From the IMG/VR virus record IMGVR_UViG_3300045988_156427: DNA of 64,000 nt, one strand, 5' to 3'. The notes beneath the pieces were generated by a model that was not told the DNA's origin, searched no databases, and saw nothing but the letters and a program-made list of their open reading frames with translations. Position 1 is the first letter of the stretch. Every line of letters starts with the position of its first letter. A program made the position numbers and the translations under genes. Positions 4,617 through 61,299 of this stretch are shown here, piece after piece. This DNA is from a virus (Duplodnaviria > Heunggongvirae > Uroviricota > Caudoviricetes).

Positions 4617-4858
4617 ATTATAGTTTTGCCGCCGTTTCGTAATACGACTTTGGATTCACTATTTAATGTGTCTTCAGCGTTGTAGAGCGGCTCAGAAGGA
4701 AATGAGCAAACAGGGAAACCTTATACAACGGCATTACAGCTATGCATTGCTCATCTTACACACAGCGCAATGTTGTTAGATTACCCCAGCATGGATCATG
4801 GGTGAAACAGTAGGTCAGAGCTTCAGGCTCTGTGTTGTCAATACAGTGAGGCATAATT

Positions 4859-54084: not shown

Positions 54085-54330
54085 TACGGCCTCGTAAGTT
54101 GATAAACAACCTGCGACCCGCTGCTAAACAGGTGGCAGGACGTGACGGGGTTAGCAGACTGGCACTTACGAAACCAGCAGGCCGAAGCCTCCCCATCACG
54201 CCCCACCATAATTCGGGCGTAACGTGGTTTACGGACACAAAAATACCGCAATATCGGAAATCTGCGGTTGTCCGCGTAAGTATTCAGGCTGCTAAACCCG
54301 GTCGCAGAATTTGCTACGACGGCGGAACTA
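54085..54330 (-). ncRNA. c4: region expected to encode the c4 antisense repressor RNA
   Basis: Non-coding leader between operator and icd with repeated GTTTAGCAGC-like and complementary CTGCTAAC elements; boundaries not determined. Confidence 0.3.
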
Positions 54331-54393
54331 TAAGCCTGAACGATTAAAAGGTCAATATGATGCGAAAAGATAGCATTCGCGACTTAAAAATAC

Positions 54394-54410
54394 AAATTTA
54401 TTAGAGCATT
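54394..54410 (-). promoter_or_regulatory. C1 operator heading the immI operon
   Basis: Reverse complement AATGCTCTAATAAATTT, 16/17. Confidence 0.7.
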
Positions 54411-54506
54411 GCATGCTTAATAAAAACACAATTGGATCTAATAACCTCTTTTTTTTAAAGGCGAAAATATGTACCCTAAATGAGTTATAAGGCAGGTGAG
54501 GTTATA

Positions 54507-55154
54507 ATGAGAAAACTATTACTACCGTTATTATTTATGGCTGGGACTGTTAATGCAGCATCAAGCGTAAAGGAGATTTGTACCGATTATACGAAATACC
54601 TTGGGCACGTTTACGGCTTTGCTGTCAGTCAAGACGAATCCATGCGCAAGAAGTTACTGTCAGATATGAAACGCCTTAAACTTTCTGAAGCGATGGTGCA
54701 GCAAGAACTGTATAAAGTCGCAACCAACGAAAATGCTAAATATCAATATTCTCGCCTGTTAAATCCCGACGCAAACGAGATCAATCGAAGCTCTTTCGAT
54801 TATATGGTAAAGGCATGCGAAACCGCTCCTGATTTTGCTATTCCTAGCTGGGGTGTGCTGGTGGCGAGCAATGCCGTTAATAAAGAAGACGTTGGAAGAA
54901 ATGGCATTGATTCAATCAGAAACTCACCGGGAATGCGCCATCAAAACGTTCAGGGTACGCTTGAAGAACGGGCCAGGGGGCCGGGTACAAACTCCCCAAT
55001 GGGAAACCTCTCCCCGGAGGAATTGCAAGAGTATAACCAACGGATGGAGCAGTATGAGAAAGCTGCACGCGAAAAAATGGAACAACAAAAAAACGGATCT
55101 CTTAATACTTTCCAGCAAGGTTTAAAAGCGCTTAATTTACCCTATGAATGGTGA
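54507..55154 (+). CDS. secreted protein, candidate superinfection-exclusion (Sim-like) factor
   Basis: Track ORF 54480..55154 trimmed to Met after GGTGAGG; signal peptide MRKLLLPLLFMAGTVNA; AT-rich; shares motif with Sit. Confidence 0.45.
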   Translation: MRKLLLPLLFMAGTVNAASSVKEICTDYTKYLGHVYGFAVSQDESMRKKLLSDMKRLKLSEAMVQQELYKVATNENAKYQYSRLLNPDANEINRSSFDYMVKACETAPDFAIPSWGVLVASNAVNKEDVGRNGIDSIRNSPGMRHQNVQGTLEERARGPGTNSPMGNLSPEELQEYNQRMEQYEKAAREKMEQQKNGSLNTFQQGLKALNLPYEW

Positions 55155-55205
55155 ATATATGGTGGTTAACTAATTAAAATATTAATATCCAAAGGAGATA
55201 AATTA

Positions 55206-55682
55206 ATGCGCATCAAACGATTTTTACTAGTTATTGCTTTGCTTACTCCGTTTTCATCAATGGCAAATGTAAGCAAATGGTCAACCGGCGAGACTCATGG
55301 TGTTCGTTCTTATGCTGTTTCCAGCAAAGATAATTATACGCTTACATTTGAGTGCGATGTTGGATTTAATAATACGGATCCCAATCAAGTAGGAACACGA
55401 CTACTCACTCTCATGAAAACAGAACCTGGCGGTGAGTCATTTGATGCTAAAAAAGAACAAATAACGCTGAAAGTTGGTGATGATGAATATCCTATCAGTT
55501 CTATCGGTTCCTCTGTGGGTGATAGTTACTGGTATGGTTTTTGGTCAGATACCCCTGATATGGAAGTTAAAACATTCGATGCATACGTAGACGGAAAAAA
55601 AATCGCAACATTTACGCTACGTAAGGCCGCAGAGCTTTTCAACGCGGCACCTGAAGATGGCTGCCTGAAGCGCGCAAAATGA
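55206..55682 (+). CDS. secreted hypothetical protein
   Basis: Signal peptide MRIKRFLLVIALLTPFSSMA; AT-rich. Confidence 0.45.
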   Translation: MRIKRFLLVIALLTPFSSMANVSKWSTGETHGVRSYAVSSKDNYTLTFECDVGFNNTDPNQVGTRLLTLMKTEPGGESFDAKKEQITLKVGDDEYPISSIGSSVGDSYWYGFWSDTPDMEVKTFDAYVDGKKIATFTLRKAAELFNAAPEDGCLKRAK

Positions 55683-55697
55683 CCTGTCACAAATGAC

Positions 55698-56307
<610 letters not shown>

Positions 56308-56317
56308 GGGGGCTGAT

Positions 56318-56929
56318 ATGGGGCTTAATGTTGCTTCAGTAAAGTCTTATGTATCTTCGGCATTAACGACGACATTATTTGGCTCCGGCGTTGGTGAGCG
56401 GGAAGTTGGTAAGCTGACGTCAATCATCATGAACAAAATGCTGTTCGCGCAAGGATGGCAGTTCTCTGTCGAAGTTGATGGTCTGGAGGGGGCAGACTTC
56501 TTTGCTAAAGACATTACCTACCACGATTACAGCATCGAATATGAAACGATTAAAATCGGCGGAGGGAATATCCTTCAGCCAACGGAGCGTTCGCCTGGGC
56601 AGATAACAATGATGGTCAGGGATACCGTTGATGGCCTCGTTTTGGACTGGTTTAAGACGGCAAAAGGTCGGGTGATCAATCCGGACGGTACCGGGAATAT
56701 ACCGTCTAAATATTTGCTCAATGTGCGTATTTATCGGTTGCTGTCCTCCGGTTTAACCAAACTGGAAAATGAGATGACGGTATTCCCGGTCACTACCGGC
56801 GATGTCACCTATGCGCGGGATCAGGTTACGGAATTTAAGTCATTCCCAATGACCTTCGCATTGCACAGCACGTTTAACCAATCCTCAAGTTCTTTAGCTT
56901 CCCTTCTGGGCTTTAGTTTTTCTCTTTGA
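56318..56929 (+). CDS. putative tail tube protein
   Basis: 203 aa, two genes upstream of tape-measure-like Sit; positional inference. Confidence 0.35.
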   Translation: MGLNVASVKSYVSSALTTTLFGSGVGEREVGKLTSIIMNKMLFAQGWQFSVEVDGLEGADFFAKDITYHDYSIEYETIKIGGGNILQPTERSPGQITMMVRDTVDGLVLDWFKTAKGRVINPDGTGNIPSKYLLNVRIYRLLSSGLTKLENEMTVFPVTTGDVTYARDQVTEFKSFPMTFALHSTFNQSSSSLASLLGFSFSL

Positions 56930-56943
56930 ATTAAGGAGCAAGG

Positions 56944-57825
56944 ATGCTTTTACCTCTTTTCCCGCTACCATCGCGGCCAACTGAATTGATCCAGTTCCGT
57001 CAGCCAAATATTGCTGATGCGATGCGTTTCAACTCGATAACACCGGAGGAACAAGAACAACAGACAACGGCGTATTTAAAAGCCTTGCTGGCTGAACCCG
57101 CGAAATATGATCCCCTGACATGGACGGCGCAGGACCGGATTACCGCGTTATGGTGGATATTTACTGGCTCCCGTGAAACACCGGTCGAGACATTCACCTA
57201 CACCTGTAAACATTGCGGTAAAGAGCATTATTACGATTGCGATATGAATGCTCTGGCTGAAGATATCCAGGTCCTGGAAGTGGAACCGTTCATTGACGAT
57301 ATTGAGGTGTCTGTAGAGGGCGTGCCTTATCAATGGCGTATCGTGCCGCTTGATGGTTGGGCAATGGAAATGCTGGAGATGCGCCGTGCAGCATTGCCAC
57401 CTGAAGACGACGCGGAATTCAAAGAAGCGATCGTTGATTTGCGTTTTTGGGAATTCGCTTATCAGTGTGAACTTTATAACGATGTTAGCGGTACTCGTGA
57501 AGAGCAGGCTGAGCGTCGTTATGAAACGATCAAACGGATGGCCATTGATACTGAATTTATGAAGCTGGCGGCACACATCCGGCTGGCTCATGAAAAGCTC
57601 GAACATGGTTTACCGTGCTACATCGATAAAGGCGAAATGCGTCTTCGTCTCCCGCCGCACAAATGCCCAAACCAGGATACAAAGGAGTCCACAGAGGGTG
57701 CGTATACCCGTCTGTGGGTGCCCTTTCGGGCTACCGACTTCATTCCACAGGTGGGGATTGAAAAGCTATCAGACCTTAGTGTCCAACCTGGTTTTGTATG
57801 GGGGTATACCGATTCAGGACGCTGA
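56944..57825 (+). CDS. putative tail assembly chaperone
   Basis: Directly upstream of Sit; long overlapping open frame 57590..57895. Confidence 0.35.
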   Translation: MLLPLFPLPSRPTELIQFRQPNIADAMRFNSITPEEQEQQTTAYLKALLAEPAKYDPLTWTAQDRITALWWIFTGSRETPVETFTYTCKHCGKEHYYDCDMNALAEDIQVLEVEPFIDDIEVSVEGVPYQWRIVPLDGWAMEMLEMRRAALPPEDDAEFKEAIVDLRFWEFAYQCELYNDVSGTREEQAERRYETIKRMAIDTEFMKLAAHIRLAHEKLEHGLPCYIDKGEMRLRLPPHKCPNQDTKESTEGAYTRLWVPFRATDFIPQVGIEKLSDLSVQPGFVWGYTDSGR

Positions 57826-57906
57826 AAGGCTCACTGAATCCTATGCGTTTTTCCTGTTGGAGAAACTGGAAGAAAAACTTAAACCGAAGCGGTAGGCGAT
57901 AAGATC

Positions 57907-60900
57907 ATGGAAAGAAAAAACGCCAACATTGACGATGTGATAAGGACGGTTGAAACCGCCAGCGCAAAAGAGCTGGAAGAGCTTGCAGGTATTCGGGAAG
58001 CCGTTGAAGATTTGAAAGGTGGGCGAGTTGCTACAGTTGATCCTGTCTCTCGCAGTGTGTCGGCATTAAATCGCACAATCGAAAATTCCCGGCCAGACTT
58101 TGTGGCCAATGCGCCATCAGTGGACCCTATTGTTGAGGCAATGAAACGGCTTAATTTAGGGGACGTTTCTCGTGTAGTTCAGGAGGATGTTGCTCTACAG
58201 GAACCGCAGGCCAAATCAACTACGCGAAAGGGTAAAAAACGACGCAAGAAGGCTATAACAGAAGATGTAAAGGCGCAACGGACCGAAGCAGCCGAACACG
58301 CTCGCGAAATGTTCGGTCAAAAAGGCGGTGCGCAAAAAAGCCAAAACCAACGCGATGCGCGTGGTCGTTTTATTGGAAAGTCAGGGAGTAAGGCCGCAGC
58401 GGAAGATGCCCGTGCTGAACGTGCTGAAAAGGCCAGGCGCAAAGAGGATGATGAGCGTCTAAATGCTGAATCAGGTTTATTAAAAAAACTGTCAAAAGTA
58501 GCTGAAGGCATAGGTAACCCTTCAGAGACTCGTGCCGTCGATGCGTTAGGTTATGCCGTTGCTGGTCCATTGTGGGCAGCAGGGAAGGAGCTTGGCGGGA
58601 TATCAAAAGAAGTTGGTGGATCGCTTAATGGTGCCAGAAAGTCTATTGCCGATGTGATTCGTGGCAATGACGATAACAGCCGTAGAAAAGGTTTTTTTAG
58701 GCGTAAATCGCAAAATAGTGCCGATGTCGTTCAGGTTAACACCCAAAAACGGACGGTTCAGGAACTTCAGGAGCAGACCAGCGAAATTAAAGAGGGCAAT
58801 GACAAGATTCTCCGCGCCCTTGATCAGATAGCCAAAAACACCGGGAAAAAGAAGGGCGGCTTGCTGTCCAAACTATTTAGCCTGTTAGGGAAGGGGGCCG
58901 GTGGCGTCGCGTCGTTGTTAATGGGGCGTGGCATGCTGAAAAAAGCTGGAGCACTCGCTTTTGGCGCTCTGGGGGCAAAGAAACTTGTAGGAATGCTACG
59001 CGGTGGTGGCAAGAAGACTCTCGCCCATGAAGGCGGAGATTTGGCTGCCCGGGCAGCAGGTAAACTTGGATTAAAGGCAGTTGGTAAAGGGGCGTTACGC
59101 GCAATTCCCCTAGTCGGCACAGTGGCTGGAGGTATTTATGATGCGGTAACCGGTTGGAATGATACAGAAGCGCAACGTCGAGCGTTTGGGCTTAAATCAG
59201 GACAAGATCCATCATTCCAGCAAAAAGCCGCTTATACGTTAGCTAATGTTCTTGATATGGGGGGACTGGTATCTGGTATTAGCAGCGCCATTGGTGAGGT
59301 TCTCAAATCACTTGGATTTGAGGATATCGGCAATATGTTGCAATCATTTTCGACGGAAAGTATTGCCCAGGCCATTGATAGTGGGATTACCAACTTAGAA
59401 ACATATATTTCTAACCTTGGCGACACCATTTCTACCAAGTTCGATGATTACACAGCAAAGATTGGTGATGCTGTTTCAGCATGGTTTAGCGATACATCTA
59501 ATAAGCTGCTTGAAAAGCTGGATGCCATCAAAGACTTCTTTACTGTCGATAACCTGAAACAGGTTTTCAGTGATGCAATTGATAGTGCAATTGATTTCAT
59601 TAAGAACCCAGGGAAACATATTAAAGAGGCGGCTGGTAATATTTGGGATGGGGTTAAAAATTTCCCCGGTAAAGCATTAGATGCAGCGGTTGATGCCGTT
59701 AAAAATACCCCTGCGGCAATGATTGTATCAAAAATACCCAATCCGATCGGCGAGGCTAATGCGAAAGAAATCACTCCAGAGTTAAAAGCTCCGGTTAATA
59801 GCCACCAGGAGACATCTGATTCTAAAACTGAATCCGATGCCAAACAGACTAATATTGTTACCCGCGTGATAAATGCGGCACTGGACACGGCGAAAGATAG
59901 CAATAAAACAGTTAAAGAAACTGCTAATCAGATTATCAATGCAAATGCCGTAGAAACGGGCAATAGCGCGTTGCAGAAAATTGATAAAGCTATTGGTCAA
60001 AATAGCTCGTCATCATCGTCGCTTAATACCACTGGCACCAGGAATGACATTCAGAAAGCTGCGGATACCTACAACAATGGCAACTTGGATGTAAAAGTCG
60101 GAAGTCTTGGCGCTGAAGGTAAGGCAAATCTCGATAAGTTGGCTCCGTATTTTGCCGAACTAGAGAATAAATACGGTCTTCCAGAAGGCACTCTTTACGC
60201 GATTGCTGCAACTGAATCTGGTGGTAATCCGTATGCAAAATCCCAAACCGGTGCTCTGGGGATGTTTCAGTTCACGGGGATTGCTCGTGAAGAGACTGGC
60301 TTAGCTGAAGGTGAATCGTTTGATCCTGTGAAATCGGCAGAAGCTGCGGCTCTTCTCATGAGCAAATATCTGAAGCAAGCCAATGGAGACTTAAACGAGG
60401 CCATCACTGCATATAATGCTGGGTTTGGCACTATCAATAAGTGGAAAAAAGGCACAGGTGACTTATCGAAAGAAAACCGTGAGTACGCGATCAAGGTCAA
60501 TACTCATCGTGCTCGCTATTTAGGTGGTGAAATCTATACACCTGGAGCAGGAGCACAGGGTGGGGCGCAATATGGAGTGAGGGGACCACTGCCTGATAAC
60601 GCTGTTATCGATCAGTCTACTGGCCTGGCGTTTACCCCTGGTGATAGCCCGTTTGAGAAAGGCGGTCTGGTAGACAAAATTGGCAATGCTGTTGGCGTTA
60701 ACGATCTGGTCAACAAATTCATGAATGGCCGGGGTATGCGTCGGGAAGTCGTTCAGGGAACGCTCGAAGAACGTGCACGAGGGAAGGGGACCGCAACAGC
60801 AGCTGGCAATGTGTATGTTGATACTCCGATGCCAGTTGAAGAGGCGCGTCCTGTGGCCAGCAACTCAAGTTACTTTGACCAACTCGGCGCACAAATGGGG

Positions 60901-61299
60901 ATTGATGGACTATTTGATAAACTCCGCAACTCGCCGGGGATGCGGAAAAATAATGCGCCTGAACCAGCCTCCACGTCCCAGGTGACGACTGCCGCCAACG
61001 ATTTGCAGCAACCAACCGGTCGTATGCAGATAGACGGACAGGTTATTAGTGACCTTGGCGGCTCCGGTGCCAAGCCGACAATGCAGTTGGCTGATAATAC
61101 CGTTTCACTTGATGGTGAAACGAAGCGGCTGTTTGCGCAGATGACCTCATTGCTTGCCAGGATTGAAGAGCACACTAAAGACTCGGCGAAAGGCCAGGGA
61201 ACTGTCGTAAAGGTCAGCACGCCTCAACCGGGCGTTATGCGCACGGTGCCACTGTCAATTGATGATCCGTTGATGAATGACTACGCGAGAGTTGATTGA
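57907..61299 (+). CDS. sit: Sit, tape-measure-like structural injection protein with lytic transglycosylase (SLT) domain
   Basis: 1130 aa; SLT motif AIAATESGGNPYAKSQTGALGMFQFT; long Gly/Lys-rich repeats. Confidence 0.85.
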   Translation: MERKNANIDDVIRTVETASAKELEELAGIREAVEDLKGGRVATVDPVSRSVSALNRTIENSRPDFVANAPSVDPIVEAMKRLNLGDVSRVVQEDVALQEPQAKSTTRKGKKRRKKAITEDVKAQRTEAAEHAREMFGQKGGAQKSQNQRDARGRFIGKSGSKAAAEDARAERAEKARRKEDDERLNAESGLLKKLSKVAEGIGNPSETRAVDALGYAVAGPLWAAGKELGGISKEVGGSLNGARKSIADVIRGNDDNSRRKGFFRRKSQNSADVVQVNTQKRTVQELQEQTSEIKEGNDKILRALDQIAKNTGKKKGGLLSKLFSLLGKGAGGVASLLMGRGMLKKAGALAFGALGAKKLVGMLRGGGKKTLAHEGGDLAARAAGKLGLKAVGKGALRAIPLVGTVAGGIYDAVTGWNDTEAQRRAFGLKSGQDPSFQQKAAYTLANVLDMGGLVSGISSAIGEVLKSLGFEDIGNMLQSFSTESIAQAIDSGITNLETYISNLGDTISTKFDDYTAKIGDAVSAWFSDTSNKLLEKLDAIKDFFTVDNLKQVFSDAIDSAIDFIKNPGKHIKEAAGNIWDGVKNFPGKALDAAVDAVKNTPAAMIVSKIPNPIGEANAKEITPELKAPVNSHQETSDSKTESDAKQTNIVTRVINAALDTAKDSNKTVKETANQIINANAVETGNSALQKIDKAIGQNSSSSSSLNTTGTRNDIQKAADTYNNGNLDVKVGSLGAEGKANLDKLAPYFAELENKYGLPEGTLYAIAATESGGNPYAKSQTGALGMFQFTGIAREETGLAEGESFDPVKSAEAAALLMSKYLKQANGDLNEAITAYNAGFGTINKWKKGTGDLSKENREYAIKVNTHRARYLGGEIYTPGAGAQGGAQYGVRGPLPDNAVIDQSTGLAFTPGDSPFEKGGLVDKIGNAVGVNDLVNKFMNGRGMRREVVQGTLEERARGKGTATAAGNVYVDTPMPVEEARPVASNSSYFDQLGAQMGIDGLFDKLRNSPGMRKNNAPEPASTSQVTTAANDLQQPTGRMQIDGQVISDLGGSGAKPTMQLADNTVSLDGETKRLFAQMTSLLARIEEHTKDSAKGQGTVVKVSTPQPGVMRTVPLSIDDPLMNDYARVD

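Follow-up and report, generated by a model that had tools for sequence, protein, structure and literature searches.

Phage-encoded envelope proteins aimed at the injection apparatus are already known, and the exclusion protein gp15 of HK97 is proposed to target the tape measure. To our knowledge, it is poorly understood in most phages how an ejected tape measure acts in the periplasm, and the mechanism by which P1 Sim blocks infection after adsorption has had no explanation since its description in the 1980s. P1-like plasmids are common carriers of resistance genes in Enterobacteriaceae. In phage T4, Spackle (gp61.3) is a periplasmic inhibitor of the gp5 tail lysozyme (PMC7677548, PMC7650644) and Imm binds the tape measure gp29 (bioRxiv 10.64898/2026.03.06.709160), while Ltp of TP-J34 is a tape-measure-targeting exclusion protein whose family is described in PMC3952083. 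The superinfection-exclusion gene of P1 is simC, and SimC is a processed, exported exclusion protein, according to Maillou & Dreiseikelmann 1990 as that work is cited in PMC2409434. P1-like plasmids have eight hypervariable regions, among them the sim region (PMC9603915), and closely related D6-like prophages differ both near simB and in sit (PMC6799933). Sit is the P1 tape measure and bears the virion muralytic domain (PMC9024508); it is not resolved in P1 cryo-EM maps (PMC12810830).

The stretch of DNA analysed here (the window, 64,000 nucleotides in full) is a P1-like phage. Its positions 54300..57900 have 99.6% identity to Escherichia phage vB_EcoM-Ro157c2YLVW and 98.5% identity to phage P1 over 71% of their length. 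The minus strand carries ant, icd and c4, followed on the plus strand by two small open reading frames, pmgC, tub, pmgB, sit, pmgA and bplA, which is the gene order of the P1 map. The gene under study, which we call simA-like, lies between the C4/immI region and pmgC, in the slot of simABC in P1 (P1 annotation, Rfam and blastn; Table 1), and the slot between c4/immI and pmgC-tub-pmgB-sit holds simA-like in other P1/D6-like elements too. The C4 RNA gene and simA-like are divergent, and the putative C1 operator between them reads AAATTTATTAGAGCAT. A strong Shine-Dalgarno sequence, AGGTGAGG, stands 7 nt upstream of the ATG at 54507. The promoter prediction for simA-like is a weak one, which counts against the exclusion role discussed below.

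Table 1. Positions of the features of the sim locus and of sit within the window
Feature	Position	Strand	Basis or remark
C4 antisense RNA of immI operon	54128..54213	-	Rfam RF01695, 70.8 bits, E=2.4e-13
a1/b1 targets of C4 RNA (immI leader)	54281..54333	-	Rfam RF03163, 56.2 bits
Putative C1 repressor operator (Op51/Oc4 of P1)	54394..54410	.	position carried over from P1 annotation
simA-like gene, 215 aa, phrog_3933	54507..55154	+	PHROG profile, homolog alignment
Predicted Sec signal peptide, aa 1-17, cleavage between VNA and A	54507..54557	+	read from sequence
Orphan all-helical domain, aa 18-125	54558..54881	+	
Segment swapped for simB-simC in P1	54647..55688	+	blastn vs P1 and P1 annotation
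Sit-like short linear motif RNSPGMRHQNVQGTLEERARGPGT, aa 138-161	54918..54989	+	BLASTP, PHROG profile, Smith-Waterman, DNA pattern
C-terminal tail (aa 170-208), variable in the family; a single long helix in the window	55014..55130	+	homolog alignment, structure model
Downstream secreted 158-aa protein, phrog_3429	55206..55682	+	PHROG profile; usual partner of simA-like
sit, tape-measure and injection protein, 1130 aa	57907..61299	+	Pfam SLT, P1 annotation
Sit motif copy 1, NGRGMRREVVQGTLEERARGKGT	60724..60792	+	BLASTP, Smith-Waterman, Sit alignments
Sit motif copy 2, core only, RNSPGMRKNN	60925..60954	+	67 aa downstream of copy 1

The SimA-like protein starts with a signal peptide of n-h-c layout, which reads MRKLLLPLLFMAGTVNA and is followed after the predicted cleavage site by ASS; the cleavage-site residues N16, A17 and S19 are invariant in 17 homologs. 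It lacks a lipobox cysteine where cleavage is predicted, and no segment beyond residue 17 is hydrophobic. A first, sequence-only reading of this DNA had described the gene as one for a signal-peptide-bearing, periplasmic protein beside immI. The Rfam matches to the C4 RNA and its a1/b1 targets bear out the position, and the Sec-type signal peptide, with neither a lipobox nor a further hydrophobic segment, leads to the same prediction of a soluble, periplasmic product. The helical domain contains two invariant cysteines, C25 and C104. Around the motif, the linker (aa 130-170) has pLDDT values of 44-58 and is predicted to be disordered. The tail differs elsewhere in the family, where it is Cys-containing or, in a common 163-aa variant, cut off directly after the motif. 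Searches of NCBIfam and PADLOC (known defence families) gave no match to the protein, a profile search of the PDB gave nothing relevant, and Pfam gave no SLT match. An assignment to the PTP-like phytases (PF14566) was considered and rejected: the match reaches 26.6 bits against a cutoff of 27 and covers only profile positions 46-132, and the protein has no catalytic C-x5-R loop, with neither the CTDYTKY nor the CETAPDF cysteine preceding x5-R.

The phrog_3933 profile matches the protein over residues 1-215 (213 profile positions, E=9.8e-137), and homologs in NCBI records carry the name 'simA domain protein'. P1 SimA (52 aa) has 88% identity to SimA-like residues 1-48, and in a blastn comparison with P1 the rest of simA-like and the next gene are replaced by simB-simC. 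Only the first ~47 codons of simA-like remain in P1 (window 54507..54646; 4681..4839 of the P1 locus, L001), which retain the signal peptide and about 30 mature residues, and the right-hand breakpoint of the replacement falls just before the late promoter LPsit. The match and the replacement together imply that P1 'SimA', whose annotation is that of a putative superimmunity accessory function, is a stub of the 215-aa gene. On these comparisons, the open reading frame in the window is the intact ancestral form of P1 simA, and the P1 annotation is thereby corrected to that of a truncated remnant of a larger gene. BLASTP of the simA-like product against P1 SimC gave a best E of 26 and the two fall in separate PHROGs, so they are unrelated.

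The SimA-like family is a narrow one of 28 clusters at 90% identity, and all members lie on P1/D6-like elements of Escherichia, Salmonella, Klebsiella and Cronobacter. A profile search of 1.84 billion representatives returned only 11 matches (50% identity level), all from the SimA-like family, and no distant relatives that would hint at function. In PLSDB, 267 plasmids match, 84 of them with a near full-length copy and many with the stub only. Since many P1-like elements, P1 included, carry only a stub of 43-52 aa, simA-like is dispensable, which counts against an exclusion role. Several homologs of 205 aa (P0002-P0008; Logan and ENA assemblies) shift to the +1 frame just before the motif (…GIDSIRTPRECAIKTF…), a frame that corresponds to the window open reading frame 54835..55125; they are either frameshifted pseudogenes or assembly errors.

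The protein encoded downstream of simA-like has 63% identity to the product of the gene after simA-like in a D6-like locus. Its counterparts in D6-like loci carry a precomputed PF27224 (YfjT) hit, and the window protein itself had no match in the copy of Pfam searched. These yfjT-like counterparts come after simA-like in D6-like, Klebsiella and Salmonella loci, and the arrangement suggests a conserved two-gene cassette. In two other loci (L004 9628..10662 and L006 9089..10147) the yfjT-like gene is replaced by that of a ~350-aa protein annotated as SH3 domain-containing, and sim-locus variants with the SH3 protein also hold further small open reading frames. The sim locus is a hot spot for envelope-directed cargo.

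SimA-like and Sit have a peptide in common. BLASTP of the two proteins gave 23/47 identities at copy 1 of the Sit motif (E=6e-9) and a second high-scoring pair at copy 2 (RNSPGMR, E=0.006). The Smith-Waterman score of 101 compares with 40.1 +/- 5.5 in 1000 shuffles (maximum 69; 0/1000 reach it), and corresponds to a Gumbel p of about 4e-7. Positions 929-972 of the Sit-family PHROG profile, phrog_2533, match SimA-like aa 129-171 with E=1.2e-7, and a degenerate DNA pattern of the motif, which has no hit in 100 shuffles, hits the window at exactly these two places. These alignments confirm the two segments as homologous rather than a compositional accident. The sequence-only reading had pointed out the common peptide, with coordinates that hold to within a few bases, and had named as checks pairwise and profile alignment with shuffled controls, which gave the values above, and conservation of the motif across P1-like phages, where the core N-x-x-G-M-R-x-Q is found in all full-length homologs. 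It had further held that the homology is visible in the DNA. The homology stands (BLASTP, PHROG profile, shuffles), but the DNA likeness is weak: DNA identity over the motif is 48/72 (67%), and the 17 identical residues have the same codon in 7 cases and a different one in 10. The resemblance is thus mainly at the protein level and does not reflect recently copied DNA.

In Sit, the motif segment stands just after the SLT transglycosylase domain (aa 748-857, Pfam E=8.9e-27). Copy 1 is kept in all Sit relatives examined, including those of D6-like elements and of Cronobacter phage JK004, and the conserved segment, DLVxKFMNxRGMRxxVVQGTLxxRAxGxG, is kept even with a different SLT-domain class. Copy 2 occurs in the P1-proper clade only, inside a ~60-aa insertion unique to that clade, and has two alleles, RNSPGMRKNN in the window (NSPGMRK) and INARGMRSNN in P1 (NARGMRS). 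The window allele matches its own SimA-like; each of the two is found alongside the 215-aa gene as well as alongside stubs. In an AF2 model of Sit aa 735-1130, built from a shallow alignment of 12 sequences, the motif region is disordered (pLDDT 31-42) and is not docked on the SLT domain. The disordered linkers predicted around the motif in both proteins are what would be expected of a short linear motif that binds a partner.

Across the SimA-like family, conservation is highest in the motif, which has the consensus phi-x-N-x-x-G-M-R-[HQ]-Q-x-V-x-G-[TS]-[LM]-x-x-R-A-x-G-x-G. Residues N139 and R144 are invariant and G142, M143 and Q146 nearly so. All full-length members have the core, and about half of the family has the extended part, V-x-G-[TS]-[LM]-x-x-R-A-x-G-x-G, as well; that half includes the most distant member (P0043), which retains 16/23 motif residues by alignment count and has a far more diverged helical domain. 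The other lineages, also about half, have the core only, with an unrelated Cys-containing tail in place of VQGTLEERARG, which counts against mimicry. Invariant motif residues are encoded by 2-4 synonymous codons across six lineages, and identical residues in cognate SimA-like/Sit pairs mostly have different codons (for example, 4 same codons among 9 residues in L089). This combination points to purifying selection on the peptide in both genes and not to recent DNA transfer. That the likeness arose by recent gene conversion between the two genes is ruled out by the mostly different codons of the identical residues. The G+C content of the motif segment (54891..55010) is 52.5%, compared with 41-42% in the rest of the gene and 48% in sit; the high value would fit an origin from sit and is equally well explained by a Gly/Arg/Ala-rich composition.

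The motif is also specific to the two families. The strict pattern has 130 matches among 2.9 million IMG/VR contigs, every one of them in a Sit-like or SimA-like open reading frame, and word-indexed searches with the Sit C-terminus and the motif profile found only fragments of Sit or SimA-like proteins. Other sim-locus open reading frames gave no match to Sit in about 80 loci, and SimC also has no Sit-like motif.

We propose that SimA-like is a superinfection-exclusion factor of the sim locus that mimics the injection protein, acting as a decoy or as a dominant negative, and give this a probability of roughly 45%. Exclusion is the favoured role because the gene lies in the sim locus, has a predicted export signal and carries a segment homologous to Sit, and because T4 Imm and T4 Spackle offer precedents for exclusion proteins directed at tape-measure or tail-tip proteins; purifying selection on the motif, its disordered linker and its restriction to the Sit and SimA-like families strengthen a functional reading. 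Against an exclusion role, P1 exclusion was mapped to SimC, which is unrelated to SimA-like. In a tape measure, it is the C-terminal end that lies at the tail tip and is the first to leave when the tail contracts. The motif-bearing C-terminal part of Sit would probably enter the periplasm ahead of the rest of the protein, and the SimA-like protein may be waiting there with the Sit peptide displayed on its flexible linker. As a decoy, SimA-like would compete with incoming Sit for whatever the Sit peptide binds; as a dominant negative, it would join the Sit assembly through the common peptide and poison it. By either route, DNA entry would be blocked for phages with a Sit-type tape measure. The decoy model, already raised by the sequence-only reading, may reasonably be inferred, although at least one other mechanism accounts for the data just as well.

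Some co-variation of the two proteins would also favour mimicry. The two x residues of N-x-x-G-M-R equal those of the cognate Sit copy in 7/12 lineages (permutation p=0.009, ignoring phylogeny). The cores that match between SimA-like and Sit are SP in the window, AR in L004, SR in L089 and L084, and AP in L082 and L048; several lineages have mismatched cores (AP vs SR). A test of cognate against non-cognate pairs over the whole motif was not significant (8/120 permutations). For the most distant family member, the contigs are only ~1.2 kb, which puts the cognate Sit beyond reach. Because the lineages are not independent and the whole-motif test is not significant, the tracking of cognate Sit by SimA-like is only suggestive. 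That SimA-like would block entry only by phages with the cognate injection apparatus, by mimicking and tracking their Sit motif, seems doubtful to us.

Sit itself occurs with two SLT-domain classes of ~40% identity on otherwise ~100% identical N-terminal rulers, as judged from window positions 60148..60477 against eight other loci (L006, L029, L034-L039). In the P1-proper clade, the cassette of 215-aa SimA-like and YfjT goes with SLT class alpha in 23/23 loci and that of 163-aa SimA-like and the SH3 protein with class beta in 10/12; the one-tailed hypergeometric p for this link is about 4e-7 (hand-calculated, ignoring relatedness). The association could be one of clonal linkage.

The same association bears on a different mechanism, which we regard as rather unlikely, in which SimA-like inhibits Sit directly in the manner of Spackle or Imm. 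Its helical domain or tail would then bind ejected Sit, at the SLT domain or the pore-forming part as candidate sites, and the common peptide would act either as a pseudo-substrate or as a homotypic interaction element, taking the docking place that the copy in Sit normally has. T4 Spackle sets a precedent as a small helical periplasmic protein that blocks a tail-associated muralytic enzyme (PMC7677548), an activity thought to reside in Sit in P1 (PMC9024508), and T4 Imm binds a tape measure directly (bioRxiv 10.64898/2026.03.06.709160); the tail/cassette type of SimA-like goes with the Sit SLT class, at 23/23 vs 2/12 in the P1-proper clade. However, that link could be clonal, and the same N-domain and motif occur with both SLT classes. 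Moreover, neither Spackle nor any solved structure resembles SimA-like in fold or in sequence, and the AF2 model of the Sit C-terminal part, with its shallow alignment, does not place the motif on the SLT domain.

Also unlikely is a role other than exclusion, with the motif as a common address or anchor that might bind, for instance, peptidoglycan or a host protein of the periplasm or inner membrane. The anchor would serve Sit at entry and the prophage-encoded envelope protein for some other end, such as protecting against lysis from without, remodelling the envelope or promoting host fitness. The position of the motif in disordered linkers is consistent with this, as are the pairing of simA-like with the gene of a second secreted protein (yfjT-like), the SH3-domain proteins in other variants of the locus and the lack of a PADLOC match to known defence families. 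On the other side, this is the classical locus of superimmunity, a general anchoring peptide would hardly be confined to the Sit and SimA-like families, as the motif is in viral contigs, and the partial tracking of cognate Sit is not what a generic anchor would lead one to expect. Very improbable, finally, is a relic, that is, a piece of sit captured once by illegitimate recombination into a neighbouring gene and functionless there, or a chance likeness: the genes share an orientation, with ~3 kb between them, in a mosaic region that is prone to recombination (PMC9603915; blastn vs P1) and the G+C of the motif segment exceeds that of its flanks (52.5% vs 41-42%), but a neutral piece would decay, yet the motif is best conserved across lineages that differ at synonymous sites and is retained in the 163-aa variants that end just after it, chance is ruled out by BLASTP, the PHROG profile, the Smith-Waterman shuffles and the DNA pattern, and the codon analysis already largely refutes the relic.

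If SimA-like does exclude phages by mimicking the Sit motif and tracking it as it evolves, no earlier exclusion system would have been defined by a peptide in common with the injection protein, and a functional docking element of the Sit C-terminus would be identified. Should mimicry hold, sequence mimicry of the injection protein would join the known strategies of exclusion. We found no paper that mentions the similarity between SimA-like and Sit. Tape-measure mimicry by a soluble periplasmic protein would be new, and the view of P1 simA as a remnant is new. The peptide common to the sim-locus protein and Sit marks ~25 residues as a likely functional contact. Mimicry would also help to explain the joint variation of the sim locus and sit among P1-like plasmids.

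Among described systems, P1 simABC is the closest in place: the locus has the same slot between the C1 operator/c4 and pmgC, the SimA-like product is likewise predicted to be exported, and its first 48 residues are homologous to P1 SimA (88% identity), whereas it has no similarity to SimC or SimB. With the Sit family (phrog_2533), SimA-like has in common the ~35-residue segment that follows the SLT domain and the second copy of the core, but it is a protein of 215 aa against 1130 aa, with neither an SLT domain nor a long helical ruler; the likeness is one of local homology and not of family membership. Imm, Ltp and gp15 resemble SimA-like in their proposed action on the tape measure at DNA entry, after adsorption, if the analogy holds. 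They differ in being membrane proteins or lipoproteins, whereas SimA-like has no lipobox or transmembrane segment, and they have no homology to it; we know of none among the three that has a sequence motif in common with the tape measure. T4 Spackle, like SimA-like, is a small, helical, signal-peptide-bearing phage protein of the periplasm, a location that is predicted for SimA-like, and by analogy SimA-like would have as its candidate target a muralytic or injection protein brought in by the virion when a phage of the same kind superinfects. Comparison of the two proteins showed no likeness in sequence or fold. SimA-like bears a copy of a peptide of its presumed target; for Spackle, no sequence in common with its target is reported.
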